From Thermoanaerobaculia bacterium (GTDB lineage Bacteria > Acidobacteriota > Thermoanaerobaculia > UBA5066 > Gp7-AA6), in contig DATBFU010000062.1 in NCBI GenBank assembly GCA_036558325.1, forward strand, positions 55,048 to 119,047: 64,000 nucleotides of DNA. The letters are read 5' to 3'. The position numbers and the translations under genes were made by a program. The notes beneath the pieces are model-generated. The model worked only from the letters and a program-made list of their open reading frames with translations, was not told where the DNA came from and did no database searches. This document shows positions 7,061-22,888 of the stretch, in pieces. How positions within the stretch are numbered: the first letter of the stretch is position 1; every line of letters starts with the position of its first letter.

Positions 7061-8329
7061 ATGCTACCACGCGATTTTCTCCGCGAGAACGCGGAACGCC
7101 TGCTCGCCGACTATCCGGAGCGCTACGCCGGATCGGGTCTCGAGCGCTTCGCCGAGGTCGACCGCCGGCGACGCGACGCGGTCACGCGACTCGAGGAGAA
7201 GCGCCGCCGGCGCAACGAGCTGACCACCGTGAAGGGCAAGCCGTCGCCCGAGGCGCTCGCGGAAATGAAGGGATTGAAGGAGGAGATCCGCGCGCTCGAG
7301 GAGCAGGCCGAGAAGGACGACGCCGAGCTCGCGGACGTCGAAACGCGGATCCCGAATGCGCCGCACCCGAGCGTGCCCCGCGGCAAGGACGAGAGCGCCA
7401 ATCGCGTCGAGCGCTCCGTCGGAGAGCCGCCGCGCTTCGACTTCGAGCCCAAGGCGCACTGGGACCTCGGCCCGGCCCTTGGCATCCTCGACTTCGAGCG
7501 CGGCGCGAAGCTCGCCGGCGCGCGGTTCACGGTGCTCCGAGGCGCCGGGGCGAGGCTCTCCCGGGCGCTTACCGCGTTCATGCTGGATCTCCAGACGCGC
7601 GAGCACGGCTACGAAGAGATCTTCCCGCCGGCTCTGACCAACGCGGCGTGCCTCTTCGGGACGACGCAGCTCCCCAAGTTCGAGGACGACCTGTTTAAGA
7701 CGCGCGAGGGCTACTACCTCATCTCGACGGCGGAGGTACCGCTGACGAATCTCCACCGCGAGGAGACGCTGACGGCGGGCGCGCTTCCCCTCCGCTACAC
7801 CGCCGGGACGTCGTGCTTCCGCGCCGAAGCGGGCGCCGCCGGGCGCGACACGCGCGGCATGATCCGCCAGCACCAGTTCGAGAAGGTCGAGATCGTGCAG
7901 ATCGTGCGGCCGGAGGGCTCCGACGCCGCGCTCGAGAAGCTGACGGGCCACGCCGAGGAGGTGCTGCGGCGGCTCGAGCTCCCTTACCGCGTCGTCTCTC
8001 TCTGCACGGGCGATCTCGGTTTTGGCGCGGCGAAGACGTACGACCTCGAGGTGTGGCTCCCCGGCCAGAACGCCTACCGCGAGATCTCCTCCTGCTCGAC
8101 GTTAGGCGATTTCCAGGCGCGCCGGGCCCAGATCCGATTCCGCCGCGCGGAGGGCGAGAAGCCCGAGTTCGTCCACACGCTCAACGGATCGGCCCTCGCG
8201 ATCGGGCGGACCATGGTCGCGATCCTCGAGAACTTCCAGCGCGCCGACGGCTCCGTCGCGATCCCGAAGGCGCTGCAGCCGTACTTCGGAGGCAACGAGA
8301 TCGGAGCCCGCAGCGACGAAGCCGGCTAG
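7061..8329 (+). CDS. serS: seryl-tRNA synthetase
   Basis: 422 aa. The N-terminal [14 protein letters not shown] leads into a coiled-coil arm. The class II core includes [28 protein letters not shown] and [18 protein letters not shown]. Confidence 0.95.
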
Positions 8330-10482
8330 GGCGACTGCGGCTCGGCCGCGGGCACGACGACCCGCCACTGCTCCGAGGACCCGTCGTTCGTGAAGGACCC
8401 GAGTCTCGCCCCGTTCGGACCGAGCATCAAGATCGCTCCGGACGGAAAGAAATCCGCGTCGTATCCGGACGAGGAGCCTGCTCCGATGCATTCGCCGATG
8501 TATCGGCCGACCGCCATGTTGGGGACGCGGACTCCTCCGATGACGTAGCTGACGCCTCCGAGCGCCACGGGCTGCCCGCCCTGATCGACGAAGTTCACGT
8601 GAATCCGCGAAGTCGCCGGCGGCAGGGTGATGACCTGGACTTCGTCCGACCGGCCGACATCGACGACCGCGGTGCCGACCGCGTACCCGCAGACATGCGC
8701 GTAAATGGCATGTGACCCGGCCGAGAGCCCCTCAAAAGCGAACGTTCCATCCTCCGCGGTCATCCGAGAGTCGTTCGGCTGCCGGCCCGTCAAGTCGAGA
8801 TCCAGGCCGACCCATGCCCTCTGGATGGGGCGGCCTTCCGGATCCTCGACCCGTCCCTTCAGCCCGGTCCCCTTTGTCATCGCGATCACGATCCCCGTGC
8901 CGCTCTCTCCGGGAGCGACTCCGCGGAGCGCCTTCTCGGCATACCCTTCCGCCTGCGCATCCAGGTCGAATGGCCCGTCCCGAAGACCGTCGAAGCGAAA
9001 CCCGCCGTCGGCGCCCGAACTGGTCGACTCGCTCTGTGCGGACCGACCGACCATCGTTCCGTCCTTCATCGGGCTCGACTGGATACCGACAGTCGCACCG
9101 CTGATCGGCGCACCGGAATCGGCATCAACCACGGTCCCGGAGAGCGACGCCGAGGGCAGCGAGACGTCGTGCGGAAACTCGGCGATTGACGGGGAAATCT
9201 CGATGCGCTCATCGAAGCGCGCCGCATCGGGTGGAAAGACTCGGAGACCATATGTTCCGGGAGACCAGACAAAAAGCTCGTATTCGCCGGCGGCGTTGCT
9301 GGTCGTGCCCGCGGATTCGCCGGCTTTCTGAAAGATGTTGACCTTTGCGCCCTCGACGGGCTCGTCGTTCTTCCAGATCTCTCCGTATACCTTCACCGGC
9401 GAGAATTCCTCACGGATCTCCGCCACCTGATCCGCGAGCACCGCGACGTCGACATGGCCCCAGAATCCGCTCGGGGGAGCGGTCGCCAGGGACAGGGCGA
9501 CCTGCCCCGGGGAAATGTTGGGGAATTCCAGGTCGATCTCGGACCGAGGATCGACCTGGCGCGTCGCCAGAGGCGGGGCGCCCCGACGGCGTGAACCGCT
9601 GGGCCAGAGGGATGCGACGAGCTTGCCGCCGGGAAGCCGCTTTGGAAACGTGAGGTGCGCTTCGATCGCGCCGGTGCCGCCTACGAAAAGATCTCCGACT
9701 TCCACCGTCTGTCCCGCGCGCACGGAGAGGCCCGCTCGATCGGCTCCCCGGTGGCCCGGAACCTGGATGTGGAGATCCCATGCTCCCGGCGGGACGCTGG
9801 CGAAGTCCAGATCCTCGCTGTCGGCGGCGACCGGCCAGTCTGCAAACAGAGCGGCCGCCGGAGAGTCGTTGCGAGCTCGCGCCGACGATCGCAAATAGCC
9901 TCGCCATTCTGGCGGGGCCTTCCCGGATCGTGCATTGCGCACTCGCCCATGAACTCGGCCGGCTGGAAGCGCGGAAAGGCGCGGGAGGTCCATGGCGGAG
10001 CCTCGGACCGAGACTCCGACGTGAAAGATTGGACCGAATCCCGGTTCGAGCAGCGCAACGTCCCAGATGCCCTCAGCGAGGACAAACCGTACGAATGTGC
10101 CGCTCTCCGACCGCTCGATTCGAGCGGAAAAAGTGCCGGCCCCAGACCACGTCTCGTCCTTGCGTTTCAGGATCACCGTCGCATCGCCGAACCCCTTGTG
10201 CGGGTCGGTAGCCCAACGAAGAAGCGTGAGATGGGCAGGAAAGTAGCGAATCTCCCCGGCGGCGGGATGAAGACCGACTCCGGAAAGCGTGTAGTAGCGA
10301 AACTCTTTGGAGTCGAGGACCTTCGGACTCGACACACAGCCTCGGCCGCCCGAAAGAAGGAGTTGGCCCGCGGCGGTCGCCATGGAAGAAGGCGACTTGA
10401 AAGCGGTGCCCGGCGCGGGTTCCAGGCTCCAGAGAGAGCATGGGCTCGCGACGACCGCCGCCGCGAGGGCGAGCGCGAGCAT
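8326..10482 (-). CDS. secreted multi-domain protein with carboxypeptidase-regulatory-like (CarboxypepD_reg) beta-sandwich repeats
   Basis: ATG at 10482 gives the hydrophobic leader [16 protein letters not shown]. Repeats such as [21 protein letters not shown] and [18 protein letters not shown] are typical of CarboxypepD_reg domains. The 5' part of the track ORF (to 10755) looks non-coding. The start is uncertain. Confidence 0.7.
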
Positions 10483-10487
10483 GGATC

Positions 10488-10826
10488 CTAGAGCGACTGC
10501 GGCGTGAGGGTTCCGGACTTCCGGCCGGGCCGTTTGGACAAACTCCTTCGCGACCAGAGCGTGCGGTCGGTCGAGTTGTCGGCGACGAGAGGGCGATATG
10601 TCACGGATTTCGCGAAATTCATGCAGTTGATGTCCATTGGAAGCGAACACGGGTCTTCGCAGTCCGTTATACCGTCTTCTCCAATACCTGCGTTTTCGCA
10701 ATGGCCTTGCGATTGACCGATCGATTCCACACAGACACAACAGGCGGGGTTGCAATCATTCGCACGTAGAATCGCCGGCACGATCAGCAGAATCGCGATC
10801 AAGAGAGCCCTTCGAATGGCGTTCAT
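10488..10826 (-). CDS. small secreted cysteine-rich protein (hypothetical)
   Basis: 112 aa. A GAGGGG Shine-Dalgarno lies 5 nt before the ATG. The signal peptide is MNAIRRALLIAILLIVPAILRA. The mature part, NDCNPACCVCVESIGQSQGHCENAGIGEDGITDCEDPCSLPMDINC, has 8 Cys and is followed by a basic tail. The gene lies in a visibly lower-GC islet. Its stop is 5 nt before the ATG of the next gene. Confidence 0.55.
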   Translation of the reverse strand: MNAIRRALLIAILLIVPAILRANDCNPACCVCVESIGQSQGHCENAGIGEDGITDCEDPCSLPMDINCMNFAKSVTYRPLVADNSTDRTLWSRRSLSKRPGRKSGTLTPQSL

Positions 10827-10920
10827 AAAGTCCCCTCTTCCGCTCCCCCACCAAAAAGATTATCAGGAGTCAAGACCCGAGATTGGATTTAGGGAACCCG
10901 GAAGGAATCTGCGCACTGAG

Positions 10921-11532
10921 TCATGAAGGCCGTGTCGGCTCCGGCACCAGCGCCCCCGCCGACACGATCATCTTCATCGCCTGCTCGGGCGTCATGTCGA
11001 GGTACGTCACGCGCTCCTCGGGCACGACGAGGAGGAACCCGGTCGTCGGATTGACCGCGCTCGGAATGAAGATGCTGCAGAGCTTCCGGCCCGTCTTCTC
11101 CCCCGCCTCGCCGGGAACGTTCGACGTCACGAATCCGAGCCCCCACGAACCCGGCGACGGGAACTCGACGATCGCGACGCGCCCGAAGCTTCCGGCGCGC
11201 CCCGGACCGAGGAGCAGCTCCGCGATCTGCCGCAGTGTCGCGTAGATCTTGTTGATGAGCGGAACGCGCTGCATGAGGCGGTCCCACAGAGCGAAGGCCC
11301 GCCGTCCGAGGAGTCCGGCCGCGATCCACCCGAGGAGGAGCAGCAGGACGTTCAGGAGCACGAACCCGAGCCCGAACACCGAGATCCCGCGCGCGCGGAG
11401 CTGATTGCCGAGGATGTTGTCGAAGAAGTTGAAGAGCTTCCAGACGACCCAGAGCGTCAGCGCCGTCGGCGCGAGGACGACGATTCCGGCGAGGTAGTAG
11501 CGCCGAAGGCGAGCGCCGAGGCCGGTCGCCAC
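10921..11532 (-). CDS. DUF502 family membrane protein
   Basis: LRRYYLAGIVVLAPTALTLWVVWKLFNFFD ... PLINKIYATLRQI ... VAIVEFPSPGSWGLGFVT is the typical DUF502 pattern. I chose the GTG start at 11532 because the track start at 11625 would overlap the divergent kinase start. Confidence 0.8.
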   Translation of the reverse strand: MATGLGARLRRYYLAGIVVLAPTALTLWVVWKLFNFFDNILGNQLRARGISVFGLGFVLLNVLLLLLGWIAAGLLGRRAFALWDRLMQRVPLINKIYATLRQIAELLLGPGRAGSFGRVAIVEFPSPGSWGLGFVTSNVPGEAGEKTGRKLCSIFIPSAVNPTTGFLLVVPEERVTYLDMTPEQAMKMIVSAGALVPEPTRPS

Positions 11533-11602
11533 GCGCTGATGGTAACCGGTAACGGCGAACACGCGTCTGGCGTATAGTCCCGCCGGCGGCGATACCACAC
11601 CC

Positions 11603-14600
11603 TTGACACAGACGACGCTGTCCAACCGATACGAGCTCCTGGTCGAGCTCGGGCGCGGCGGAATGGGCGTCGTCTATCGCGCGAAGGATCCTCTCCTCTC
11701 CCGCGAGGTCGCCGTCAAGCTCATCTCTTCGGCGGACTTGTCGAAAGAGCTCGAGGATCGCTTCCAGCGCGAGGCGCAGATCGTCGCGCAGATGGATCAC
11801 CCGGCGATCGTCCCGATCTACGACCTCGGGCGCGACGAGAATTCCCTGTTCTTCGTCATGCCGCTCGTCGGCGGCACGACGCTCCTGCGCCTCATCCGCG
11901 ATCAGTCGCTGCGGCTCGGCGACGTCGTGGACATCGGCATCCAGGTGGCCGAGGCGCTCGACTACAGCCACTCGCGCGGCGTCGTCCACCGCGACATCAA
12001 GCCGGCCAACATCATGGTGACGCGCGAAGAGGGCGCCGGCCCGCGCGTCCGCGTCATGGACTTCGGCCTCGCCCACGCGACGACCGAGTCGCGCCTCACC
12101 AAGACCGGGACGCTCGTCGGCACGGTCGCCTATCTCTCGCCCGAGCAGGTCGCCTCGCGCTCCTTCGACGGCCGGTCGGACATCTACTCGCTCGGCGTCG
12201 TCCTTTACGAGTGTCTCCTCGGCGAGCCGCCGTTCACCGGCGAGGTCCAGTCGATCCTGTATCGCATCGTCCACGAGATCCCGCAGCCGCCGCGCGCGCT
12301 CGGCGCCGAGATCCGCGAGGAGCTGCAGGACCTCGTGCTGCGCTGCCTCGAGAAGGACCCCGGCAAGCGCCCGCAGAAGGCCGGCCACGTCGCCGACGCG
12401 CTCCGCCGGCACAAGTCGAGCCTCGCGAGCGACGAGTTCCGCATGTCGATGGTGGTCAGCCCGAGCCGCATGATTCATCGCCCCGTTCTCTCAGTCTTCA
12501 TCGGGCGAGAGAAGGAGTTCGCCGAGCTCCAGCGCCGCCTGAACGCCGCGATCTCGGGCGAGTCGCAGTTCGCCGTCGTCGCGGGAGAGCCGGGCATCGG
12601 CAAGACGCGGCTCCTCGAGGAGCTGAAGAACCTCGCGATCGCGCGGAAGATCCGCGTCCTCTACGGCCGCTTCGTCGAGCAGGACCGCTCCTTTGCCTAT
12701 TCGGGCTTCTGTGAGCTCATCGAGGACTACTTTCGGTCCCGCGACGCGTCGGGCGCGTCCGGCGAGCGCCCGGACTTCTCGGACCTCGCGGCGGACCTGG
12801 TCGCGCTCTTTCCCCAGCTCTCCGAGATCTCCGAGCTTCGTTCCGCCGTCGGCGGCGACTCGCGGATCGCGGTCCCGGCGGCCGAAAAGAAGGCCGAGGA
12901 CCGCATCCAGGTCTTCGAGCTCATCGCGAAGACCCTCACGCGCATCGCCGGCGGGAAGCCGCTGGTTCTCATCCTCGACAATCTCCACGGCGCGGAGATC
13001 TCGATCGAGGCGCTCCAGTACATCGTGCGGAGGCTGCGCCCGACGCCGACCCTCATCGTCGGCAGCTACCGCCAGACCGAGACCGACCGGCGGCACCCGC
13101 TCATCAAGATGCTCGAGTCGTTCGGGGACGACCCGCGTTTCGTCTCGCTGACGCTGCCCCCGTTTTCCGCCTCCGAGCATCGCGCGCTCGTCGAGTCCCT
13201 GGTCGGCTCGGGCGGCGCCACCGACAGCCTCGTCCGCCGCCTCCACGAGGCCACGGAGGGGAATCCCTTCTTCGCGAAGGAGCTCGTCCGCTCGCTCGTC
13301 GAATCGGGCGGCATCGCGAAGGACGACACGGGCTCCTGGGGATTCTCCAAGGAGACGGAGATTTCCGCCGACGCGCTGCCCGCCACGATCCAGCAGGCCG
13401 TCGAGAAACGCATCGAGCGGCTGCCGGAAGAGCTGCGCGACGTGATGGCCGCGGCGTCCGTGCTCGGGAAGACCTTCGAGTCGAAGGATCTCGGCAGCCT
13501 GCTCGAGGACGCGAAGGACCTCGACGACGACCTCGACCGTCTCGTGAGCGAGGGCATGCTCGAAGAGGACCGGGAATCGCGCGGAGACCGCCTCACGTTT
13601 TCGAGCGGCATCGTCCGGGACGCGCTCTACGCCGGGCTCTCGCGGCGGCGGCGGCGCTCGCTTCACCGCAAGTACGCCGATCTTCTCGAGAAACGCTACG
13701 CCGGACGTCTCGAACGGATCTATCCCGAGCTCGTCCATCACTACTCGCAGGCCGACGTCGCAGAGAAGACCGTCGAGTACGGCCTGAAGCTCGCGCAGAA
13801 GTCGCTCGACGCCTTCAGCCCGGACGAGGCCGTGCGCGTCGCGAAGATCGCGCTCGACTATCTCGAGGACGCCGAAGAGGCCGGAGACCGGCTGCTCGAG
13901 GCGGACGCGCGGCTCCTCCTCGCGCGGGCTCATCGCATGGCGGGCGCCATCGACGCGGCGATGCGCGAAGGCGAGGCGGCGATGCGCGTCTTCGAGGAGG
14001 AGAAGGAGACGGCGCGGGCCGCCGCCGCGACGCTTCTCGTGGCCGAGACCGCGTGGCAGGCCCGCCGCATCGACGAATCGCGCCGTTTCGTCGAGCGCGG
14101 GCTGGAAGCGGCGCGCGCGAGCGGCCAGAAGGAGCACCTCGGCAAGCTGCTGTCGCTCGCGGCGAGCCTCGCGAACCTCCGGGGCGAATACGGAAAATCC
14201 GCCGCCTATCAGGCCGAGATCGAGAGGCTCGCGCCGGCCGAATCGGCGCCCGAGGAGAAGGTTCCGCAAGGCGGCACGCTCGTCGTGGCGATGGCCAACC
14301 CGATCGCCGCGACGGAGCCCGGGACGCTGCAGACCAACGAAGAGTCGGAGGCTCTCGCCAACGTGTTCGACACCCTCGTCACGACGGACCCGAAGGGCAA
14401 TCTCGCGCCGGCTCTTTGCGATCAATGGACGCTCGAGGACGGCGCGCGAACCGTGAAGCTGCGCCTGCGGCCCGACGTCGCCTTCTCAGACGGCGCGCCC
14501 GTCACCGCCGCGGCGGTGAAGACGTCCCTCGAACGATCGATCCGGCTCTCGAAAGACCAGCTTCCGGCGGCGTTCGTCGCGATCCACGGCGTCGGCGACT

Positions 14601-17269
14601 ATCTCGAGGGCCGGAGCTCCGACGTCTCCGGAATCGCGGCCCGTTCCGACCGGGAGATCGAGATCCGGCTCGCCGATTCGCTGCCGATCTTTCCCTCCCT
14701 CCTGACGGACTCCCGCACGGCCGTCGTGGCCGCCGGCGCCGGCCCGGAGGCGAGGCCCGTCGGCACCGGCCCGTATCGCGTCGCCTCCCGGACTTCCGAG
14801 CGCATCGTCCTCGAGCGCAATCCGCGCTCCTGGAGGCAGCCCCCAGCGCGGCTCGACGGCCTGGAGTTCCGCGCTTCGCTGCCGGCGCCCGCGATTGCGG
14901 CCGGACTGCGCGACGGTTCGATCGACCTGGCCCGAGACCTCCTCCCGAAAGACCTCGAGGCGATCCTCCGCGAGCCCCGGTTCCGAGCGGGATTCGTCGA
15001 GACGCCGAAAAAGAACACGTACTTCGCCGTGTTCCAGACGGGAACGCCCGCCGGAGGCAACGCCGTTCTTCGCCGCGCGCTCGCGGGCGCCGTGCGGACC
15101 CAGGATCTCGTCTGGGGAGCGCTCGGACGACTCGCCCTGCCCGCCACCGGCCTGATCCCGCCGGGGATCCTCGGCCACGACGCCGGCCGGCGGCAGACCC
15201 ACCTTTCGCGCGAGCAGGCGATCGACGCGATCCGATCCTCGGGGCTGCCGCTTCCCGTGAGGCTCCGCGTGTCGCTCCACCCGATCCTGCAGAACCAGTA
15301 CGCCGCGCTCACCGAGGCGCTCTTCGCGGCCTGGAAAGATCTCGGCGTCGAGGTCGACGTGGTCGCGAAGACGATGCCCGAGTTTCTCGAATCCTGGCTC
15401 GAGAACCGCGAAGTGGATCTCATGATCGGCCGCTGGATCGCCGACTACGACGATCCCGACAACTTCACGTTCACGCTGTTTCACTCCGGCAACGGCGCCG
15501 CGCGCGCGTACTTCTGCTCGCCGGAGACCGACCGGCTCCTCGAGGAGGCGCGCGCCGAGACGCGGCCTGCGTCGCGCGAGGCCTTTTACCGGAGGTTCGA
15601 GCACGCGCTCCTCGATCCCGGGATCGTCGTGCCCCTCTTCCACGACGTCGACTACCGCATCGCCAGTCCGAAGGTCCGCGGGCTGCAGCTTCGGAGCACC
15701 GCGCCCTACGTCAACTACGCCGAGCTCGGCAAGACCGAGTCGGCCGAGCTCCGCGCCGCGGCCGACCGCGCGCTCGGCGGCGGCACGCTCCACGTTCCGA
15801 TCGCCGGAGTGGTCCGCGACCTCGACCCCGTTCTCTGCGAGACGCAGGAGCAGAGCGACGTCGGCCCGTCGATGTTCGAGGCGCTGACGCGCGCCATCGG
15901 CGGCACGCGCATCGTGCCGTGGCTCGCCTCCGAGATTCAGCCCGAGGCCGACGGCCGGCGCTACCGCTTCCGGCTGCGCCCGGGTCTCCGATTCCACGAC
16001 GGGCGCCGGCTGACGGCGCGCGACGTGCGCTTCTCGTGGGAGCGGCTGCTCACGAGCTCGAGCGTGAACCGATGGCTGCTGTCGCCGGTTCAGGGCGCCA
16101 AGAAGATCTTCGACGGACAGGCCACGGATCTCGAGGGCTTTCACATCGTGTCGCCGACGGAATTCTTCGTCGACCTCGAGAAGCCGGTCGCGTTCTTCCC
16201 GGCCGTGATTTCGTACACGCCGACCGCCGTCCTCCCCGAGGGGACGGGCGCCGTCGGCTCGGGACCGAACGAGAGCGCCGTCGGAACCGGCCCATTCCGG
16301 CTCGTCCGATTCGAGCCCGGACGCCGCCTGGAGCTCGAGCGCAACCCGTACTACTGGCGCGACGGCTTTCCGCGGAGCGAAGGCATCGAGTTCCGCTTCG
16401 GCGTGTCTCCCGAGGAGATCCGGAGCGAGTTCCTGGCCGGAAGGTTCTCGCTCTCGTCCGACCTGCTGCCGGCCGACGCCGAAGCGCTGCGGCACGATCC
16501 GCGGTTTGCGGGCAACTATCGGGAGAGCCCGCGCCTCTCGACGTACTTCCTGACCTTCAACTCGCGGAAGGGCCCGTTCCAGGACGTGGAACGGCGGCGC
16601 GAGCTCGTACGAAACATCGACGTTCCCGCCATGGTCCGCCGGACTCTGGGACGCGTCGCGATTCCGGCGCACGGCATCATCCCGCCCGGCCTCCTCGGTT
16701 ACTCGGCCTCCGGCCCGGCCTCCGGCCCGATCCCGGGAGGCGAGGCGTCGGACAGCTCCGTCGAAGCGACGGTTTCGCGGGAGGCGACCGAGGTGTCGGT
16801 CGCGATTCACCCGGTCTTCCTCGGGGAATTCGCGGCCTTCTACCGGGAGCTGACGGCTTCTCTACGCGAGATCGGATTTCGCCTGCGACCGATCAACAAG
16901 ACGATGGCCGAGTACATGGCGATGCAGCCGAAGGCCGAGGGAGACCTGAACATCGGCCGGTGGAACGCGGATTATGCCGACGCCGACAACTTCGTCCACA
17001 CGCTGCTGCACTCGGACGCGGGCTTCTGGGGCAAGTACATCGGATCGCCCGAGCTCGACGAGCTCGCCGAGCGCGGTCGCGCCGAGACGGACCCGCGCAC
17101 CCGCCACGCGATCTACCGGCAGGTCGAGGAGATCCTCGCGCGCGAGGCCCTCATCCTTCCGCTCTTTCACGACCAGGTCTACTGCTTCGCGCGGCCGGAG
17201 GTCGAGGGACTGGGGACGCTCGGCTCCAATCCGATCGTGTCGTACGAGGAGCTGGCGATCCGGCGGTAG
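11603..17269 (+). CDS. giant multidomain Ser/Thr protein kinase - AAA/STAND NTPase - TPR-like region - two tandem family-5 solute-binding (SBP_bac_5, DppA/OppA-like) domains
   Basis: 1888 aa, TTG start.
- Kinase motifs: GRGGMGVVY, AVK, HRDIKPANIM, DFGLA, GTVAYLSPE (about aa 9-275).
- P-loop: GEPGIGKT (aa 328-335, nt 12584-12607).
- Helical TPR-like region to about aa 870.
- SBP5 domain 1: about aa 889-1375 (nt 14267-15727), GGTLVVAMANP..FDTLVTTDPKGNLAPALC.
- SBP5 domain 2: about aa 1392-1888 (nt 15776-17266), GGTLHVPIAG..RFRLRPGLRFHDGRRLTARDVRFSWERLL.
- I saw no hydrophobic transmembrane stretch. Confidence 0.9.
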   Translation: MTQTTLSNRYELLVELGRGGMGVVYRAKDPLLSREVAVKLISSADLSKELEDRFQREAQIVAQMDHPAIVPIYDLGRDENSLFFVMPLVGGTTLLRLIRDQSLRLGDVVDIGIQVAEALDYSHSRGVVHRDIKPANIMVTREEGAGPRVRVMDFGLAHATTESRLTKTGTLVGTVAYLSPEQVASRSFDGRSDIYSLGVVLYECLLGEPPFTGEVQSILYRIVHEIPQPPRALGAEIREELQDLVLRCLEKDPGKRPQKAGHVADALRRHKSSLASDEFRMSMVVSPSRMIHRPVLSVFIGREKEFAELQRRLNAAISGESQFAVVAGEPGIGKTRLLEELKNLAIARKIRVLYGRFVEQDRSFAYSGFCELIEDYFRSRDASGASGERPDFSDLAADLVALFPQLSEISELRSAVGGDSRIAVPAAEKKAEDRIQVFELIAKTLTRIAGGKPLVLILDNLHGAEISIEALQYIVRRLRPTPTLIVGSYRQTETDRRHPLIKMLESFGDDPRFVSLTLPPFSASEHRALVESLVGSGGATDSLVRRLHEATEGNPFFAKELVRSLVESGGIAKDDTGSWGFSKETEISADALPATIQQAVEKRIERLPEELRDVMAAASVLGKTFESKDLGSLLEDAKDLDDDLDRLVSEGMLEEDRESRGDRLTFSSGIVRDALYAGLSRRRRRSLHRKYADLLEKRYAGRLERIYPELVHHYSQADVAEKTVEYGLKLAQKSLDAFSPDEAVRVAKIALDYLEDAEEAGDRLLEADARLLLARAHRMAGAIDAAMREGEAAMRVFEEEKETARAAAATLLVAETAWQARRIDESRRFVERGLEAARASGQKEHLGKLLSLAASLANLRGEYGKSAAYQAEIERLAPAESAPEEKVPQGGTLVVAMANPIAATEPGTLQTNEESEALANVFDTLVTTDPKGNLAPALCDQWTLEDGARTVKLRLRPDVAFSDGAPVTAAAVKTSLERSIRLSKDQLPAAFVAIHGVGDYLEGRSSDVSGIAARSDREIEIRLADSLPIFPSLLTDSRTAVVAAGAGPEARPVGTGPYRVASRTSERIVLERNPRSWRQPPARLDGLEFRASLPAPAIAAGLRDGSIDLARDLLPKDLEAILREPRFRAGFVETPKKNTYFAVFQTGTPAGGNAVLRRALAGAVRTQDLVWGALGRLALPATGLIPPGILGHDAGRRQTHLSREQAIDAIRSSGLPLPVRLRVSLHPILQNQYAALTEALFAAWKDLGVEVDVVAKTMPEFLESWLENREVDLMIGRWIADYDDPDNFTFTLFHSGNGAARAYFCSPETDRLLEEARAETRPASREAFYRRFEHALLDPGIVVPLFHDVDYRIASPKVRGLQLRSTAPYVNYAELGKTESAELRAAADRALGGGTLHVPIAGVVRDLDPVLCETQEQSDVGPSMFEALTRAIGGTRIVPWLASEIQPEADGRRYRFRLRPGLRFHDGRRLTARDVRFSWERLLTSSSVNRWLLSPVQGAKKIFDGQATDLEGFHIVSPTEFFVDLEKPVAFFPAVISYTPTAVLPEGTGAVGSGPNESAVGTGPFRLVRFEPGRRLELERNPYYWRDGFPRSEGIEFRFGVSPEEIRSEFLAGRFSLSSDLLPADAEALRHDPRFAGNYRESPRLSTYFLTFNSRKGPFQDVERRRELVRNIDVPAMVRRTLGRVAIPAHGIIPPGLLGYSASGPASGPIPGGEASDSSVEATVSREATEVSVAIHPVFLGEFAAFYRELTASLREIGFRLRPINKTMAEYMAMQPKAEGDLNIGRWNADYADADNFVHTLLHSDAGFWGKYIGSPELDELAERGRAETDPRTRHAIYRQVEEILAREALILPLFHDQVYCFARPEVEGLGTLGSNPIVSYEELAIRR

Positions 17270-17293
17270 GCCGATCTCGGCCCAGGGTCTGCC

Positions 17294-17330
17294 GAGCTCG
17301 GGATCCCTCGCGATCGCTCGGGATGACAGC
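17294..17330. repeat. REP-like intergenic element, copy A (AGCTCGGGATCCCTCG ... CTCGGGATGACAGC)
   Basis: It shares a 16-nt block and a 14-nt block with the element at 22363-22402. It lies between the kinase stop and tRNA-Ser(GCU). Confidence 0.55.
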
Positions 17331-17364
17331 TCAAGTGAGGGAGGCGTAGCCGTAACAGAGTTGT

Positions 17365-17458
17365 TGGCGGAGAGGACGGGATTCGAACCCGTGATAGAGG
17401 TTTAGGCCCCTATGGCGGTTTAGCAAACCGCTGGTTTCAGCCACTCACCCACCTCTCC
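17365..17458 (-). tRNA. tRNA-Ser (anticodon GCU)
   Basis: The reverse complement is GGAGAGGTGGGTGAGTGGCTGAAACCAGCGGTTTGCTAAACCGCCATAGGGGCCTAAACCTCTATCACGGGTTCGAATCCCGTCCTCTCCGCCA. It has a 7-bp acceptor stem (GGAGAGG/CCTCTCC), an anticodon arm GCGGT-TTGCTAA-ACCGC, a long variable arm, a T arm ACGGG-TTCGAAT-CCCGT and an encoded CCA. Confidence 0.92.
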
Positions 17459-17679
17459 GCGAGTGGTCAGGTCGCCGATGTTAGTGGATCTCTTCCGAGT
17501 TGGAAACCAGCAGGAGCGCGTGCGCCACCAGATCTGACTTCACGGGTTCGCGCCAAAGCGTCGTCGGCCGCGAATACGGCCGAGGGCGCGAGACAACGCC
17601 GGCCTCCGGGCCGGCGGTTATCCCGTCCTCTCCGCCAAATCCCTCGACCGCGCGCGGCCACGCGGTACCATCCCCGCGC

Positions 17680-19875
17680 GTGAAACGACGCGTCCTCCTC
17701 GTCCTGGCCGCGGCGATCGCGGCGGCCCTCGGCGTCTGGGCGTACCACAACACCTCGATCCACCGGCTGCGCCGCGAGTTCGAGCCCTGGATGGAGCGCC
17801 TCGTCCGCTGGCGCGACGCCTGCGAGGCCACGCGGCGCGCCCTCCGGAGCCGCGACGCGACGCCCGCCGGTCCCGACGGCATCGCGCCGCTCCGCGCGTG
17901 GGCCTGGGCCGGCATCGACCGCATGGGCTATGTGGACTTCCGCGTCGAGAAGCCGGAACACGAGAGCGCCGCCGGCCTGGAGCGGACCTCCGGCCGCGTC
18001 CGTTTCACCGTCGGCGGTTTCGCGGCAGGAGGAACGCGGATCGAGCGGAGCGCCGACGTCCGCGTGACCGAGGAGACACGGGATGGATCTCGTCCGCACT
18101 TCTCGGTCGAACTGCTCGCCGCGGTCTCCGATCGGTCCGAGCCGTCGCCGCGCTTCCACGACGCGACCTCCGAGGCCGGCCTGGGCGCGCCGCGCCACGA
18201 CCCTCCCTACAAGGTCACGAACCATCTGATCTCGGACATCTGGCCGGGCTCGGGCGTCGCGGTTCTCGACTACGACCAGGACGGCGCGGAGGACCTCTTC
18301 GTGGCCGACGGCCTCCGCTCGATCCTCTATCGCGGCGACGGCCGCGGGCACTTCACCGACGTCACCGAAAAGGCCGGCCTCGCCAAGGACGCGACGCACG
18401 GAATCGCGGCGACCGGCATCGCCGCGGGGGACATCGACGGCGACGGCTATCCGGATCTCTTCGTCACCGACGCGTTCGGCCCGGCGCGCCTTTTCCACAA
18501 CAAGGGCGACGGAACGTTCGAAGAGTGGACGGACCCTTCCGGCATCGCGATCGCGAAGGATGCGCGCACCGCGGCCTTCGCCGACGTGGACGGCGACGGC
18601 GACCTCGATCTCTTCGTTTGCGTGACGGGCGACTACTACAACAAGATGCCGAATCCGCCCTTCGACGCGAACGACGGCCTTCCCAACCACCTCTACATCA
18701 ACGATGGCCACGGCCGATTCACCGACGCGAGCGCCGACTGGGGCGTCGCGAAGCCGCCGCGATGGACGCTGTCGTCGCTCTTCGCCGACTACGACGGCGA
18801 CGGGCGCGCGGATCTCTTCCTCACGAATGACTTCGGCCTCGCGCAGCTATACCGCAACGACGGCGGCCGCCGGTTCGTGGATGTGACGAAGAAGGCCGGC
18901 GCGGAGATCCGCGCGTACGGCATGTCCGCGATCTGGGGCGACTTCGACGGGGACGGCCGCCTCGATCTCTACACGACCGGCGCGGACACGCAGTGGTTCT
19001 TCCTTCACGAGTATCCGTCGCTGCCGATCGGCATCCCCGGGCGGATCTTTCTTCCGGTCGCGATCGCGTGGATGGAGAAGATGGCGACGGGCAACTCGCT
19101 CCTCCTCCAGCGCGCGGACCACACCTTCGAGAACGCGACGGCGCGCTCGGGCGCGGCGCACGCCGGCTGGAACTGGAGCACGATCGCCGCCGATCTCGAC
19201 AACGACTCGTGGCTCGACCTGTACTCCACCAACGGAATGTGGGGCGACGGCCGCGATCACGACACGGAGCTCGAGTTCTGGTGGGACTCGCTCGCCTACT
19301 GGGACGACTACGTGGCGGGGACGCGAACCTTCGACCGAGAGGGCGCGGGAATGGCCGGGATCGAGCGCGATCGTTACTTCCACAATCGCGGCAAGGGCCG
19401 CGGCGGCGATCCCGTCTTCGAGGATCGCGGCTTTCTCGACGGGCTCGATCTCGAGACCAACGGACGCGCGGCCGTCGCGTTCGACGCCAACGGCGACGGC
19501 GCGCTCGACGTCTACGTCCGGTCCGTGCAGGCCCCGGAGGCGCTCTTCCTCGGGAGCCGGAAGCCCGGCGAGCACTTCCTGCGCATCCGCCTGCGCGGCG
19601 CGCCGGGCCTGGACAACCGCGACGGCGTCGGCGCGCGGATCACGGCGACGCTGCCCGGCGGGCGCACGCTCCTCGTCGAAACGGACAACGCGAGCGGCTA
19701 TCTCTCGACGGGCAGCCCGATCGCGCACCTCGGGCTCGGCGCAGCGAGCCGGCTGGTCGCTCTTGCCGTGAGATGGCCGTCCGGAAGAGTTCAGGAGCTC
19801 GGGCCCGTCGAGCGCGTGGACCGCCTGATCGTCGTGGACGAGAAAAGCGGGGTCCTGCCCGAGACGGTAGACTAG
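17680..19875 (+). CDS. CRTAC1-family protein (FG-GAP/VCBS repeats + ASPIC/UnbV C-terminal domain), membrane-anchored or secreted
   Basis: GTG at 17680 gives VKRRVLLVLAAAIAAALGVWAY. FG-GAP-like repeats recur (DYDQDGAEDLFVADG, GDIDGDGYPDLFVTD, ADVDGDGDLDLFV, DYDGDGRADLFLTND, DFDGDGRLDLY). The C-terminal GVGARITATLPGG...YLSTGSPIAHLGLG matches ASPIC/UnbV. Confidence 0.85.
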   Translation: MKRRVLLVLAAAIAAALGVWAYHNTSIHRLRREFEPWMERLVRWRDACEATRRALRSRDATPAGPDGIAPLRAWAWAGIDRMGYVDFRVEKPEHESAAGLERTSGRVRFTVGGFAAGGTRIERSADVRVTEETRDGSRPHFSVELLAAVSDRSEPSPRFHDATSEAGLGAPRHDPPYKVTNHLISDIWPGSGVAVLDYDQDGAEDLFVADGLRSILYRGDGRGHFTDVTEKAGLAKDATHGIAATGIAAGDIDGDGYPDLFVTDAFGPARLFHNKGDGTFEEWTDPSGIAIAKDARTAAFADVDGDGDLDLFVCVTGDYYNKMPNPPFDANDGLPNHLYINDGHGRFTDASADWGVAKPPRWTLSSLFADYDGDGRADLFLTNDFGLAQLYRNDGGRRFVDVTKKAGAEIRAYGMSAIWGDFDGDGRLDLYTTGADTQWFFLHEYPSLPIGIPGRIFLPVAIAWMEKMATGNSLLLQRADHTFENATARSGAAHAGWNWSTIAADLDNDSWLDLYSTNGMWGDGRDHDTELEFWWDSLAYWDDYVAGTRTFDREGAGMAGIERDRYFHNRGKGRGGDPVFEDRGFLDGLDLETNGRAAVAFDANGDGALDVYVRSVQAPEALFLGSRKPGEHFLRIRLRGAPGLDNRDGVGARITATLPGGRTLLVETDNASGYLSTGSPIAHLGLGAASRLVALAVRWPSGRVQELGPVERVDRLIVVDEKSGVLPETVD

Positions 19876-19883
19876 GATTTCCC

Positions 19884-21500
19884 ATGGCCACGGCCGAGCC
19901 CCTTCCGACTGCCGACGCGGCTTTCGAATACGACGTGGTCGTGGCGGGCGGCGCGGTCGCGGGCGCGTCGACCGCGATTCTCCTGAAGCGCGGCCGGCCG
20001 GACCTGAAAGTCCTCGTCGTCGAGAAGACCGAGAAATTCGACTGGAAGGTCGGCGAGTCGACGGTCGAAGTCTCCGCATACTTCCTGACGCGCGTCCTCA
20101 AGCAGTGGGACCATCTTTCTCGCGAGCAGCTCCCCAAGCAGGCGTTCCGGTACTGGTTCGTCAACGACCGCGTCACGCGGCTTCGCGACGCATCGGAGAC
20201 GGGGCCGACGCAGCTCGCACGCACGCCGTCGTTCCAGCTCGATCGCTCGAAGCTCGACGAGCACCTGCTGAAGGTCGCCCGCGATGAGGGCTGCGAAGTC
20301 TGGCGTCCGGCGAAGCTCGCAGCCTGGGAGCTCGGCGGGACGGACGGCAACTCGCTGACGGTCGAGAAGAGCGACGGCTCGCGCCACAACGTGCGGTGCC
20401 GGTGGCTCGTCGACGCCACGGGGCGGCAGGCGATGCTCGCGCGCAAGCGCGGCGGCGTGACGCCGATCGAGTCGCACCCGACGGCCGCGATCTGGATGCG
20501 CTACCGCAACGTCCGCGACATGGACGGCGTCGCGGTCGCCGGAACCGATCCGGGCGATCCCTGGGCGCGCGCGGTGATCGCCCCGCGGCGCCTCGCCACG
20601 AACCACTTCAACGGCTGGGGCTACTGGATCTGGTTCATCCCGCTGAACGAAGGCGAGACGAGCGTCGGTCTCGTCTGGGACAGGCGCCTCCTCGATCCCC
20701 CGGGAAAGATGCCCTTCGAGCGGCTGACGCGGTTCCTCGACTCGAACCCGCTGACGCGCGAGCTGCTCGTGGGCGCCGAGCCGATCGAGAGCGATTGCCG
20801 CTACTACGCGCACCTGCCCTACTTCGTCGACCGGTTCATCGGAGCGGGCTGGGCGTGCGTCGGAGACGCCGGCGGCTTTCTCGACCCCTTCTATTCACCG
20901 GGGCTCGACCAGATGTCGTTCTCCGTGTGGACACGCACGCGCCTGATTCTCCAGGCGCTCGGAGGTGCAACGCCCGAGAAGATGGAGAAGGAGTACGCCG
21001 AGCACAACCGGCGCTACGACCGGTACTTCAAGTTCTTCTACGAGTCGATCTATCGTGACAAGTACTACGTCATGGGCGATTACGACACCATGACGATCGC
21101 GTTCCTGCTCGACACGGCGCTCTATTATTTCGCCGCGATCACCCCAATCTATCGCTGGTCGCACGAGCGCCTCGGTGTTCCGCCGTTCTTCGAGGACGGC
21201 GCCGAGATTGGCTACTACCCGATCCGTTTCTACAACCGGCGCCTGGTCAAGATCGCGCAACGAAAGATGAAGCTCGGCATCTACGGAAACCACAACGCCG
21301 GACGCCGGCCGAAGTTCGTCGGGTTCTCCGTGCGGTCGGCGCGCTGGGTCATGCTCTTCCATGGGCTGCTGCGGTGGGCGAAGGCCGAGCTCGCACACGC
21401 CTGGACGTACGTCGTGCGCCCGCGCCCGATCGCGAAGCCCGCCGCCGGACCGGACGCCGCCGCGCCCCCGCATCCCCGCCTCTCGACGCAGGACTCTTGA
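19884..21500 (+). CDS. FAD-dependent oxidoreductase, flavin-dependent halogenase-like
   Basis: The ATG at 19884 follows the CRTAC1 stop with an 8-nt intergenic gap. Motifs are GxGxxG (VVVAGGAVAGAS), WKVGES (candidate Lys55), WxWxIP (WIWFIP, nt 20625-20642) and FxxPxxSxG (FLDPFYSPG). 538 aa. Confidence 0.8.
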   Translation: MATAEPLPTADAAFEYDVVVAGGAVAGASTAILLKRGRPDLKVLVVEKTEKFDWKVGESTVEVSAYFLTRVLKQWDHLSREQLPKQAFRYWFVNDRVTRLRDASETGPTQLARTPSFQLDRSKLDEHLLKVARDEGCEVWRPAKLAAWELGGTDGNSLTVEKSDGSRHNVRCRWLVDATGRQAMLARKRGGVTPIESHPTAAIWMRYRNVRDMDGVAVAGTDPGDPWARAVIAPRRLATNHFNGWGYWIWFIPLNEGETSVGLVWDRRLLDPPGKMPFERLTRFLDSNPLTRELLVGAEPIESDCRYYAHLPYFVDRFIGAGWACVGDAGGFLDPFYSPGLDQMSFSVWTRTRLILQALGGATPEKMEKEYAEHNRRYDRYFKFFYESIYRDKYYVMGDYDTMTIAFLLDTALYYFAAITPIYRWSHERLGVPPFFEDGAEIGYYPIRFYNRRLVKIAQRKMKLGIYGNHNAGRRPKFVGFSVRSARWVMLFHGLLRWAKAELAHAWTYVVRPRPIAKPAAGPDAAAPPHPRLSTQDS

Positions 21501-22288
21501 CGCGGCCCGTCGCGGTCGTCACCGGAGCATCGAGCGGACTCGGTCTCGAGCTCGCGACGATCGCGGCACGGGATGGGCACGACCTCGTCCTCGTCGCGCG
21601 CCGGCGCGACCGGCTCGAGAACATCGGGAAGGGTCTGCGCGAGGAGTTCGGCGCCGGCGTCACGGTCATCGCGCGGGATCTGTCGGAGACCGAGGCGCCG
21701 CGCGTCGTCGCGCAGGAAGTCGAGGCGCGCGGCTTGCCGGTGGATCTGCTCGTCAACAACGCGGGGTTCGGCGTTCACGGACCGTTCGCGGAGACGCCGT
21801 TCGACCGGGAGCTCGGGATGATCCGCGTCAACATCGTGGCGCTGACCGAGCTCACGAAACGCCTGCTGCCCGGAATGCTCGCGCGCGGCCGGGGCCGAAT
21901 CCTGAACCTCGCATCGACCGCCGCGTTTCAGCCGGGACCCCTCATGGCCGTCTACTACGCGTCGAAGGCATACGTCCTCTCGTTCTCGGAAGCGCTCGCG
22001 AGCGAGGTCGCGGGATCGGGCGTGACCGTCACGGCCCTCTGCCCCGGACCCACGCGCACGGAGTTCGGAAAGGCCGCCGGGATGCTCGAGACGCGGCTCT
22101 TCCGCAGCCCGCTCGTCAAGGACGCGCGGTGGGTGGCCGAAGCCGGATATCGGGGCATGAAGCGCGGCCGGCGCGTCGTGATTCCGGGCATCGGGAACCG
22201 GATCCTCGCGGAGGCCGTCCGCTTCGCGCCGCGGCGGCTCGTGACGGCGATCTCGCGCGCCGTCCAGGAGACGCGGGGGAAGAGGTAG
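21497..22288 (+). CDS. short-chain dehydrogenase/reductase (SDR) family oxidoreductase
   Basis: TTG at 21497 overlaps the halogenase-like stop (TTGA). Motifs are TGASSGLG, NNAG and YYASKAYV (canonical YxxxK). 263 aa. Confidence 0.85.
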   Translation: MTRPVAVVTGASSGLGLELATIAARDGHDLVLVARRRDRLENIGKGLREEFGAGVTVIARDLSETEAPRVVAQEVEARGLPVDLLVNNAGFGVHGPFAETPFDRELGMIRVNIVALTELTKRLLPGMLARGRGRILNLASTAAFQPGPLMAVYYASKAYVLSFSEALASEVAGSGVTVTALCPGPTRTEFGKAAGMLETRLFRSPLVKDARWVAEAGYRGMKRGRRVVIPGIGNRILAEAVRFAPRRLVTAISRAVQETRGKR

Positions 22289-22776: not shown

Positions 22777-22866
22777 GGAGGAGTGGCCGAGCGGTTTAAG
22801 GCGGCAGTCTTGAAAACTGCTGTGCTGGTGACAGCACCGAAGGTTCGAATCCTTCCTCCTCCGCCA
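22777..22866 (+). tRNA. tRNA-Ser (anticodon UGA)
   Basis: The sequence is GGAGGAGTGGCCGAGCGGTTTAAGGCGGCAGTCTTGAAAACTGCTGTGCTGGTGACAGCACCGAAGGTTCGAATCCTTCCTCCTCCGCCA. It has an acceptor stem GGAGGAG/CTCCTCC, an anticodon arm GCAGT-CTTGAAA-ACTGC, a long variable arm, a T arm GAAGG-TTCGAAT-CCTTC and an encoded CCA. Confidence 0.93.
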
Positions 22867-22888
22867 CTCGGACCGAGGGTTCCTCCGC

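Follow-up and report, generated by a model that had tools for sequence, protein, structure and literature searches.

A Hanks-type kinase joined to a STAND NTPase and two tandem, predicted cytoplasmic family-5 solute-binding modules in Acidobacteriota

The gene discussed here is found in a window of 64,000 nucleotides, the whole stretch of DNA that was analysed, from a bacterium of the class Thermoanaerobaculia in the phylum Acidobacteriota. It is one uninterrupted reading frame of 1888 codons which runs from a TTG to a TAG and codes for a Ser/Thr kinase, a STAND NTPase, a helical arm and two SBP5 modules, in that order (Table 1). The N-terminus is in register with the N-termini of orthologues, e.g., L027 which starts with LTPTTLSNRYE. 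A promoter and terminator scan gave nothing informative.

Table 1. Features of the gene and the tRNA gene next to it (nucleotide positions are those of the window)
Feature	Residues	Position	Strand	Basis and remarks
Whole gene	1-1888	11603..17269	+	1888 aa, from TTG to TAG; domains in the rows below
Hanks-type Ser/Thr kinase domain	10-270	11630..12412	+	Pfam Pkinase 10-258, E 9.6e-55
STAND nucleotide-binding domain (AAA_16)	299-486	12497..13060	+	Pfam AAA_16, E 1.6e-20
Helical and putative winged-helix region of STAND core	487-680	13061..13642	+	Conserved TEGNPFF motif 551-557
TPR-like helical-repeat arm	681-876	13643..14230	+	AlphaFold, ~10 helices in hairpins
SBP5 module 1 (SBP1)	889-1380	14267..15742	+	Pfam SBP_bac_5, NCBIfam; modelled as a complete OppA-like cluster-C fold
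SBP5 module 2 (SBP2)	1394-1888	15782..17266	+	Pfam SBP_bac_5, NCBIfam; modelled as a second complete OppA-like fold
tRNA-Ser(GCT)		17365..17458	-	ARAGORN; convergent, 96 nt past the stop of the gene; outside the protein system

The neighbouring genes code for SerRS, a CarboxypepD_reg protein, a DUF502 protein, tRNA-Ser, an FG-GAP/ASPIC protein and a FAD halogenase-like protein. There are no ABC permease or ATPase genes in the neighbourhood, as the preliminary description of the locus had already noted, and there are none at the loci of the relatives. Clustering of the flanking ORFs from 73 relatives' loci revealed no conserved partner gene (FHA protein, phosphatase, transporter or regulator); the recurrent items were a tandem paralogue, unannotated ORFs and unrelated BlaR/BlaI-like genes only. 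Within the genus and in the closest relative the gene is found at the same chromosomal locus beside the DUF502 gene and serS. An origin as a tRNA-associated mobile insert was rejected for this locus, because an att-like repeat of the 3' end of the tRNA-Ser gene is found nowhere in the window, because 18 of the 20 relatives' loci lack any tRNA, and because of the synteny in the genus.

An unusual fusion in a fragmented MAG-type genome (163 contigs, 89% complete) might be an artefact or a product of decay. It could come from a misjoin between a kinase-STAND gene and the SBP genes of a transporter, be a pseudogene, or encode SBP modules which are actually exported. At a few long-read MAG loci (L052, L066) a homologous gene is indeed broken into two or three ORFs. 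The same length and the same uninterrupted architecture however recur across more than 100 independent clusters, some of them from closed or near-closed chromosomes, the closest relative is colinear along the entire gene, dN/dS is well below 1 in every domain, GC is even across the junction between the kinase-STAND part and the SBP part (0.67-0.73), and the protein is without TM segment or signal peptide. The preliminary description had pointed to about 14.2 kb as the place where a frameshift or a chimeric join could be hidden, and this is excluded because the same-length architecture is kept in all these independent assemblies, closed chromosomes included. The probability that the gene is an artefact is thus negligible and this explanation is effectively refuted; the gene is intact and encodes a large soluble signalling protein.

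The kinase domain passes the Pfam gathering threshold with 186.2 bits (cut-off 31.7). The sequence has the G-loop GRGGMGVV (17-24), VAVK with K39, E57, HRDIKPAN (129-136) and DFG (153-155), followed by the activation loop TESRLTKTGTLVGTVAYLSPE at residues 161-181 and an APE-like motif which here is SPE. Among 58 family members all of these motifs (G-loop, K39, E57, HRD, N136, DFG and SPE) and the threonines of the activation loop are invariant or conserved in at least 90%. The best Foldseek matches of the N-terminal model are PknA, PknS, PknB and PknI. With its catalytic motifs intact the domain is an RD-type Hanks kinase and is predicted to be active.

The STAND domain which follows reaches 74.7 bits with Pfam AAA_16 (cut-off 32.6), and the combination of kinase and STAND NTPase in one ORF of 1888 aa, which had been proposed earlier, is thereby confirmed. 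The NTP-binding motifs are present, Walker A as GEPGIGKT (328-335), in which G328, E329, G331, G333 and K334 are invariant in the 58 family members, and Walker B as LVLILD (454-459), in which the acidic position 459 is D in the present protein and E in the family consensus. The TEGNPFF motif, which we take to be the GxP-type motif of MalT/LAL-type STAND proteins, is invariant at T551, E552, G553, N554, F556 and F557 in the same set. The AlphaFold model shows a winged-helix-like pattern of helices and strands at ~589-680 with a pLDDT of 60-90. It should be noted that the model of residues 1-900 is poor (pLDDT 64, with low confidence at residues 300-520); a Foldseek search with it gave kinase domains only and recovered no STAND fold, and residues 280-880 had no STAND match among the PDB sequences. 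Because the kinase-NOD model is this poor, any autoinhibitory contacts are purely conjectural.

The arm is modelled with more confidence. About five helical hairpins at 681-876 have a pLDDT of mostly 85-95, in line with the TPR repeats of the preliminary description. At the sequence level this claim did not stand, since no TPR profile reaches its Pfam threshold: the best one, TPR_12, has an E of 0.005 and 17.4 bits (cut-off 30.1), and TPR_19 is also sub-threshold. The term TPR-like is for this reason used as a structural description only. A paralogous variant (L100) has a weak match to TPR_MalT.

The C-terminal half contains two stretches of Pfam SBP_bac_5 (E 4.7e-108, 362 bits). NCBIfam models of the OppA/NikA/DppA type match residues 892-1363 and 1407-1885, in agreement with the two domains that had been placed at nt 14267-15727 and 15776-17266. 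The model of the tandem has two complete two-lobe cluster-C folds (pLDDT 81.6); how they are oriented to one another is uncertain (pTM 0.51). Foldseek aligns these modelled folds over ~520 columns with liganded OppA (1OLA, 1B52), 8UPI and MppA at a target-normalised TM-score of ~0.85 and ~21% identity. SBP1 and SBP2 share ~35% identity, and each has the other as a nearer relative than the SBP5s of the periplasm. SBP2 has a low-complexity loop at residues 1698-1726.

The preliminary description left the choice of ligand between a peptide, nickel and an opine-like compound. The nearest solved relatives are the peptide binders OppA, MppA, DppA and 8UPI, with NikA and the opine binders more distant. 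A phmmer search of the PDB with SBP1 gave E. coli OppA (3TCF/9RD1, E 4e-32, positions 13-482 of a query piece of 507 aa), and with SBP2 it gave 8UPI (E 5e-39) followed by OppA, MppA and DppA; the E-values against solved peptide-binding proteins are from 1e-25 to 1e-39. In OppA Arg413 contacts the C-terminal carboxylate of the peptide, and this residue is not kept in SBP1, where the phmmer alignment has an Ile. Asp419 of OppA, which binds the N-terminal amine of the peptide (PMC5736914), has an equivalent in both modules. In SBP1 it is D1281 (nt 15443-15445), aligned by HMMER to D419 and located in the conserved motif GRWIADYDDPDNF; in SBP2 it is D1790 (nt 16970-16972) in the motif GRWNADYADADNF, which has the same ADY and was aligned to 8UPI. 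Both residues are invariant in 58 family sequences. From this kept Asp ligand binding in the cleft between the lobes is predicted. The pattern W-x-A-D-Y-x-D-x-D-x-F is on the other hand a general family-5 signature, whose conservation may be structural and not a sign of peptide binding.

Topology was assigned by hydropathy only. The 19-residue Kyte-Doolittle maximum is 1.41, which is below the usual TM threshold of 1.6 and lies within the kinase fold. Since the protein begins directly with the kinase, a Sec or Tat signal has no place at its N-terminus. The SBP modules are internal (889-1888), behind the kinase, and have neither signal peptide nor lipobox. The two ordinary SBP5 proteins of the same genome do have hydrophobic leaders, and the gene for one of them adjoins a BPD_transp_1 permease gene. 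The absence of export and TM signals in the present protein agrees with the earlier reading, and hydropathy and the N-terminal kinase together suggest that the SBP5 modules are cytoplasmic.

An independent precedent for cytoplasmic SBP5 in signalling exists in the same phylum. MCP-SBP5 chemoreceptors occur in ~53 of 401 Acidobacteriota genomes (e.g., L023:4431-7625), although not in the window's own genome. Two TM helices lie at their N-terminus and the SBP5 at their C-terminus, and because no TM helix separates the SBP5 from the MCP signalling domain the SBP5 is on the cytoplasmic side. This SBP5 is ~29-31% identical to SBP2 and the motif YADFPDPDNF is kept. The chemoreceptors differ from the present protein in having an MCP output, an N-terminal TM hairpin as anchor, a single SBP5 and no STAND NTPase. 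SBP Pfam domains are also described as sensor domains in cytosolic receptors (PMC9602780).

The SBP5 modules need not be sensors. They could be docking sites for protein or peptide, or a scaffold, which recruits kinase substrates via exposed termini or mediates assembly, with the STAND switch controlled in some other way. OppA-type proteins contact the backbone of extended peptides and clamp their N-terminal amine, and both modules keep this clamp. Two papers report chaperone-like binding of unfolded proteins by OppA (PMC7442780, PMC9967938). Two modules in tandem could in addition supply avidity for a protein partner. We consider a docking function quite improbable, since STAND proteins of the canonical layout (MalT, Avs and NLRs) typically sense their signal with the C-terminal region and since there is no conserved adjoining gene that could encode a partner. 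Moreover, variants of the family with a single SBP5 exist (1366-1529 aa) and the same module is found on an MCP, which favours a portable input domain over a substrate dock specific to the kinase.

The family to which the protein belongs is large. More than 100 protein clusters of ~1870-1900 aa with 63-87% identity have the same architecture. Each of the 18 genomes sampled from the window's family carries it, many of them with tandem paralogues, as do ~26 of the 401 sampled Acidobacteriota genomes. An architecture that was common and already characterised would, according to the preliminary description, have spoken against its reading; it is common, with hundreds of clusters in Acidobacteriota, and no published description of a kinase-STAND-tandem SBP5 protein was found in the literature. 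Identity to the gene is ~75% within the genus, 61-64% within the order and 44-53% within the class, and this drop with taxonomic rank is what vertical inheritance produces. Purifying selection acts on each of the five domains. Against four close orthologues dN/dS of SBP1 and SBP2 is 0.08-0.24, which means that the modules are maintained and not decaying. Column conservation is 0.78 at the sensor end compared to 0.89-0.90 in kinase and NOD, as expected if the sensor end carries the specificity. Besides the single-SBP5 variants there are members with two kinase domains and members with an added SIR2 domain. In the tree the gene is placed within the "down" clade of the tandem paralogues with a support of 100/99. 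A recombinant origin of the single copy from the "up" and "down" paralogues was considered as well and rejected, sliding identity being indecisive.

Some of these features would also fit a function in conflict or immunity. An NLR-like sensor of this kind would use the tandem SBP5 to recognise a peptide or protein of an invader, be it a phage or a competitor, and its STAND domain would oligomerise. The kinase would then be the effector and shut down either the cell or the invader, a part which a SIR2 NADase would take in some relatives. SIR2_2 is a frequent effector in bacterial STAND and defence systems, and in the variant P0163 (2184 aa) an N-terminal SIR2_2 precedes the kinase. The tandem duplications, which are independent or homogenised in two families, the faster evolution of the sensor and the patchy occurrence at the level of order and phylum point in the same direction. 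The PADLOC models PD-T4-6, Mad6 and PglW match the protein, but in the 25 of 33 matches listed they cover the generic kinase domain only (residues ~2-287), and among these no Avs or STAND model falls on NOD, arm or SBP. The immunity reading is also hard to reconcile with a gene which none of the sampled genomes of the window's family lacks, and which keeps its locus within the genus and in the closest relative, loses identity with rank as in vertical inheritance, is under strong purifying selection throughout, and has no mobile-element genes, att repeats or defence-island neighbours. We find this reading unlikely.

The layout of the N-terminal half is known from PknK of Mycobacterium tuberculosis, which is a soluble kinase-AAA_16-TPR protein of the MalT/LAL branch of STAND kinases. 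Proteins of the PknK or TIGR03903 type also have an N-terminal Hanks kinase followed by an AAA_16 NOD and a helical-repeat arm; for PknK the comparison is one of domain architecture. The NCBIfam model TIGR03903 (kinase/cyclase, STAND region) aligns to residues 299-843 with 281 bits, and because the cut-off is 706 bits the protein is not a TIGR03903 equivalog. Whereas these proteins end in a TPR/MalT-like arm or a cyclase, the present protein continues for ~1000 residues with two SBP_bac_5 domains.

MalT, the activator of the E. coli maltose regulon, is the prototype of a ligand-gated bacterial STAND protein and binds maltotriose with its arm. It has a NOD, a winged helix, an arm and a sensor located C-terminally, and a small ligand licenses its ATP-dependent oligomerisation; the present protein would follow the same logic, with a putative winged helix and a presumed sensor. 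MalT acts through a LuxR-type DNA-binding domain and senses with its superhelical arm, whereas here the output is a kinase and the sensor presumably a Venus-flytrap pair of SBPs. With OppA, MppA, DppA and 8UPI the modules share the fold, which is modelled over its full length, and the clamp Asp; unlike these proteins they have no export signal and no ABC operon and are fused in tandem behind a STAND kinase.

SgrR of E. coli is a wHTH regulator of the cytoplasm whose sensor domain is an SBP_bac_5, and the NCBIfam SgrR model has a weak match at residues 1452-1571 (E 8e-9). It is thus similar in using a family-5 SBP fold as the intracellular input domain of a regulator, and it differs in that it is a one-component transcription factor, has only one SBP5 and lacks both an NTPase switch and a kinase. 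In GlnH-GlnX-PknG, known from mycobacteria and corynebacteria, a soluble Hanks kinase is under the control of a solute-binding protein. This is according to a review from 2021 the only characterised case of a Ser/Thr kinase stimulated by an SBP, and the link is indirect and extracytoplasmic (PMC8050422). GlnH belongs to SBP family 3, is a separate protein outside the cytoplasm and signals via the membrane protein GlnX, in contrast to the SBP5 modules described here, which are fused to the kinase and predicted to be cytoplasmic.

The model which we favour, and which is probably correct in its outline, hypothesizes that a Venus-flytrap sensor in the cytoplasm, whose ligand is probably peptide-like, controls a STAND switch of the MalT type which activates the kinase by oligomerisation. 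The kinase would be the output, NOD and winged helix the switch, and the tandem SBP5 the sensor, with the TPR-like arm as the fourth part. In the resting state the arm and the SBP modules would keep the NOD closed, ADP-bound and monomeric. A small ligand in the cytoplasm would then bind to one or both Venus-flytrap modules and close them; most likely it is peptide-like with a free alpha-amino group, e.g., an imported oligopeptide, a product of proteolysis or a muropeptide. The closure would free the NOD for exchange of ADP with ATP and for oligomerisation, and the oligomer would juxtapose the kinases so that they can phosphorylate each other on the conserved T166, T168 and T170 of the activation loop. 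The active kinase would finally phosphorylate downstream substrates. The ligand would in this scheme activate and not inhibit. Cytoplasmic SBP5 sensors which feed a STAND switch and a kinase had been suggested from the start; the modelled folds, the selection, the clamp Asp and the MCP-SBP5 proteins favour them, while binding and gating are what we infer.

The signals which activate bacterial Hanks kinases are mostly unknown. The present family offers a directly testable kinase input, with two binding domains which lend themselves to recombinant work and are fused to switch and kinase, and a ligand of the SBP modules could reveal the stimulus of a whole family of kinases in Acidobacteriota, which are among the most abundant and genetically least understood phyla of the soil. 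If the model is true it shows a Venus-flytrap domain gating a STAND ATPase. It is conceivable, and we suggest it tentatively, that this is the first STAND/NLR-like NTPase gated by closure of a Venus flytrap, and that the family-5 SBP is a portable cytoplasmic receptor, plugged into kinase, double kinase, SIR2 plus kinase and MCP outputs, by which Acidobacteriota read their intracellular peptide pool and set phosphorylation, chemotaxis or NAD-based responses. In the databases this large and unstudied family is mislabelled as parts of ABC transporters. The name "ABC transporter substrate-binding protein" is a functional misnomer since no ABC permease or ATPase genes are linked to the gene, and it inflates the peptide-transport capacity predicted in metabolic reconstructions based on MAGs.

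The gene consists of 1888 uninterrupted codons and is real, and the preliminary description of it was accurate. Its TTG start is credible because the only alternative in-frame start ahead of the kinase core, M21, lies within the glycine loop and because the N-termini of the orthologues start at the same position. SBP_bac_5 was detected twice in the C-terminal half, where Pfam and NCBIfam place the two modules (SBP1 and SBP2) to within a few codons of the coordinates first proposed. Of the kinase-STAND-TPR part, the kinase and the AAA_16 nucleotide-binding domain (NOD) were borne out by Pfam. The arm has about five helical hairpins (residues 681-876), confident within an AlphaFold model of residues 1-900 that is poor overall (pLDDT 64); all Pfam TPR models are below threshold here, so that "TPR-like" is a structural description only. 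The kinase is an RD-type Hanks kinase with a complete set of catalytic motifs and a Thr-rich activation loop TESRLTKTGTLVGT, and the motif residues are invariant or nearly so in 58 homologues. The NOD carries Walker A (GEPGIGKT), Walker B (LVLILD) and a conserved TEGNPFF. On the criteria tested the sequence would place the protein among both the Hanks kinases and the AAA_16 STAND proteins, and the analysis shows its parts to be intact.

Coordinates of the kinase gene, its domains and the loci discussed
Feature	Coordinates	Description	dN/dS
Kinase gene	window 11603-17269 (+)	start TTG, stop TAG	0.03-0.24
Pkinase	residues 10-258	Pfam E 9.6e-55	0.03-0.12
AAA_16 (NOD)	residues 299-486	Pfam E 1.6e-20	0.05-0.14
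STAND region of TOMM kinase/cyclase model	residues 299-843	NCBIfam TIGR03903	
Arm			0.14-0.19
SBP_bac_5	two stretches	Pfam E 4.7e-108	
SBP1	residues 892-1363	NCBIfam, OppA/NikA/DppA-type	0.08-0.24
SBP2	residues 1407-1885	NCBIfam, OppA/NikA/DppA-type	0.14-0.24
DUF502 gene	window 10921-11625 (-)	divergent from kinase gene	
CarboxypepD_reg or TonB-dependent-receptor-like genes	window 8326-10755; L017:1340-7020; L099:8723-10900	adjoin fusion gene	
tRNA-Ser segments	window 17364-17525, 22758-22870	L027 9405-9565, 14473-14585	
Two-kinase loci	L099:2081-8551; L100:2651-9160	Pkinase x2, AAA_16, SBP5 x2, weak TPR_MalT match	
MCP-SBP5 chemoreceptor	L023:4431-7625 (genome G047)	1064 aa	

A chimeric join at about 14.2 kb had been considered. 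The GC content (0.67-0.73) is even over the whole gene including this junction, and a search with the SBP half found over 100 clusters whose proteins are about 1870-1900 aa long, with the identical Pfam set and 63-87% identity, all from Thermoanaerobaculia or Acidobacteriota MAGs. Whole-genome searches recovered the full tandem SBP region from open frames of about 1890-2000 aa, both in 18/18 genomes sampled from the window's family and in most of a sister family's genomes; about 26 of 401 genomes sampled across the phylum, from many families, have a full-length match to the arm-SBP1 junction. A scan of 185,579 species genomes gave 331 relatives, the best 80 of which are all Acidobacteriota MAGs, closed chromosomes among them, and the 50%-identity representatives fall into dozens of separate clusters, about 1850-1950 aa in length. 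The closest relative's locus (L027) is colinear with the window over 8203-17304. With the same-length architecture in so many clusters, in every sampled genome of the family and in a colinear relative, the join is not a chimera. The dN/dS values (Nei-Gojobori, four close orthologues) depend on the orthologue and are low in all domains, which shows that every part of the protein is selectively maintained. In some long-read MAGs (L052, L066, L046, L056, L075) the homologous gene is truncated or lies in 2-3 ORFs; such loci are genuine pseudogenes or else products of homopolymer indel errors.

Topology was judged from hydropathy alone. The Kyte-Doolittle mean over 19 residues peaks at 1.41, in the kinase beta-sheet and under the usual level of a TM helix; the kinase occupies the N-terminus and the SBP modules are internal, which agrees with the original remark that there is no signal peptide or TM segment. 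SBP1 begins at the equivalent of mature OppA residue 14, behind an acidic, proline-rich linker. On this hydropathy basis the analysis shows the SBP modules to be cytoplasmic, and it is most improbable that an artefact or export explains the kinase-SBP5 architecture. The two free SBP5 proteins of the window's genome both have hydrophobic leaders, and one adjoins a BPD_transp_1 permease.

The phylum has a second signalling protein whose end-module is a family-5 SBP retained in the cytoplasm. It is a chemoreceptor of about 1065 aa, which about 53 of 401 Acidobacteriota genomes encode, and it is built of two TM helices in an N-terminal hairpin, an MCP signalling domain and, at the C-terminus, SBP_bac_5; this SBP5 is cytoplasmic because no TM helix was found between it and the MCP domain. 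It occurs as one copy per genome in many families and is absent from the window's genome.

In a structure model of the tandem SBP region (pLDDT 81.6, pTM only 0.51) the fold of each single module is well defined; how the two are oriented to each other is not. By Foldseek each is a complete cluster-C fold, with a target-normalised TM-score of about 0.85 to liganded OppA (1OLA, 1B52), 8UPI and MppA. The nearest solved proteins by sequence are OppA, MppA, DppA and the Mesorhizobium peptide-binding protein 8UPI; NikA and the agrocinopine binders lie further off. In OppA, Asp419 forms a hydrogen bond with the N-terminal amine of a bound peptide (PMC5736914). D1281 in SBP1 aligns to this residue, D1790 in SBP2 sits in the same ADY motif, and both are invariant within the kinase-STAND-SBP5 family. 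This is only a hint of a peptide-like ligand, since OppA Arg413 has no counterpart in SBP1 and the motif marks family 5 in general. That the modules dock proteins or peptides and are not small-molecule sensors seems rather improbable. SBP1 and SBP2 (about 35% identical) are nearer to each other than to periplasmic SBP5s, and kinase-STAND proteins with a single SBP occur (1366-1529 aa), which suggests that the pair arose by internal duplication. The fold is that of the OppA-type SBP_bac_5 proteins, but their functional hallmarks, signal peptide and ABC operon, are absent here, in agreement with the earlier observation that no ABC permease or ATPase genes lie nearby; the database label "ABC transporter substrate-binding protein" is therefore misleading.

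In the canonical STAND layout the C-terminal region is the sensor (MalT, NLRs, Avs), and the order output, NOD, arm, C-terminal module found here matches it. The best-supported reading, which we consider probable, is that the SBP5 pair acts as a Venus-flytrap sensor gating the NOD and thereby the kinase. Ligand would close the pair, closure would permit the NOD to exchange nucleotide and to oligomerise, and the RD kinase would then be activated through proximity-driven trans-autophosphorylation; we infer the ligand, the sign of regulation, the oligomerisation and the substrates. The protein would function in the manner of a MalT/PknK-type STAND protein, its input borrowed from OppA-type transport receptors. 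SBP folds as cytoplasmic sensors are a known principle, as in the LacI/LysR effector domains and SgrR. SBP Pfam domains double as sensor domains of cytosolic receptors (PMC9602780). A 2021 review of SBPs in signalling regards them as extracytosolic and gives for Ser/Thr kinases GlnH-GlnX-PknG only (PMC8050422). The architecture might have proved common and already characterised; it is widespread, but literature searches turned up no description of a kinase-STAND-SBP5 protein. It is a STAND kinase whose SBP5 pair is a probable Venus-flytrap sensor, of a family widespread yet uncharacterised, and it is of value chiefly because it opens the input of a large kinase family to direct test.

Two kinds of variant have additional effector domains at the N-terminus. 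The two-kinase proteins have 2156 and 2169 aa, and P0163, a homologue of 2184 aa, has an N-terminal SIR2_2 followed by Pkinase, AAA_16 and 2xSBP5; the SIR2 form is a hint that some members of the family serve in conflict systems. An NLR-like conflict sensor would also fit the tandem duplications and the fast evolution of the sensor end, but we consider it unlikely: the gene is universal in the window's family, synteny is stable, identity drops with taxonomic rank as under vertical inheritance, and among the 25 of 33 PADLOC defence-model matches listed none reaches the NOD or the sensor.

The window's genome has a single copy of the gene, and many relatives have two head-to-tail copies. G068, a genome of the same genus, has serS and DUF502 followed, divergently, by the "up" and then the "down" copy. 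The tree places the window's gene within the "down" clade (support 100/99), and the "up" copy is missing in the window and in L027. Two families have separate up/down pairs in the tree, which indicates either that the gene duplicated independently or that the copies evolved in concert. The window's genome (4.1 Mb) has about 57 Hanks-kinase loci, mostly within open frames of 700-1200 aa, a kinome unusually large for the genome size.

No conserved neighbour gene beyond the genus was found in the relatives' loci. The longest-ORF starts of the kinase and DUF502 genes overlap by 23 nt (window 11540-11630), and the same-genus genome has the same abutting arrangement; with these putative starts hardly any space is left for divergent promoters. 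In three genomes, from different families, the fusion gene has genes for CarboxypepD_reg or TonB-dependent-receptor-like outer-membrane proteins next to it, which may be coincidental, as Acidobacteriota have very many such genes. Spread of the kinase gene as an insert associated with a tRNA is not supported at this locus. Downstream, tRNA-Ser GCT (-) and TGA (+) bracket an FG-GAP/halogenase/SDR block. Both tRNA genes are inverted in place relative to L027, with the flanks 8203-17304 and 17540-22282 still colinear, and L027 has two additional partial copies of window 17437-17525, which suggests small invertible or re-inserted tRNA cassettes.
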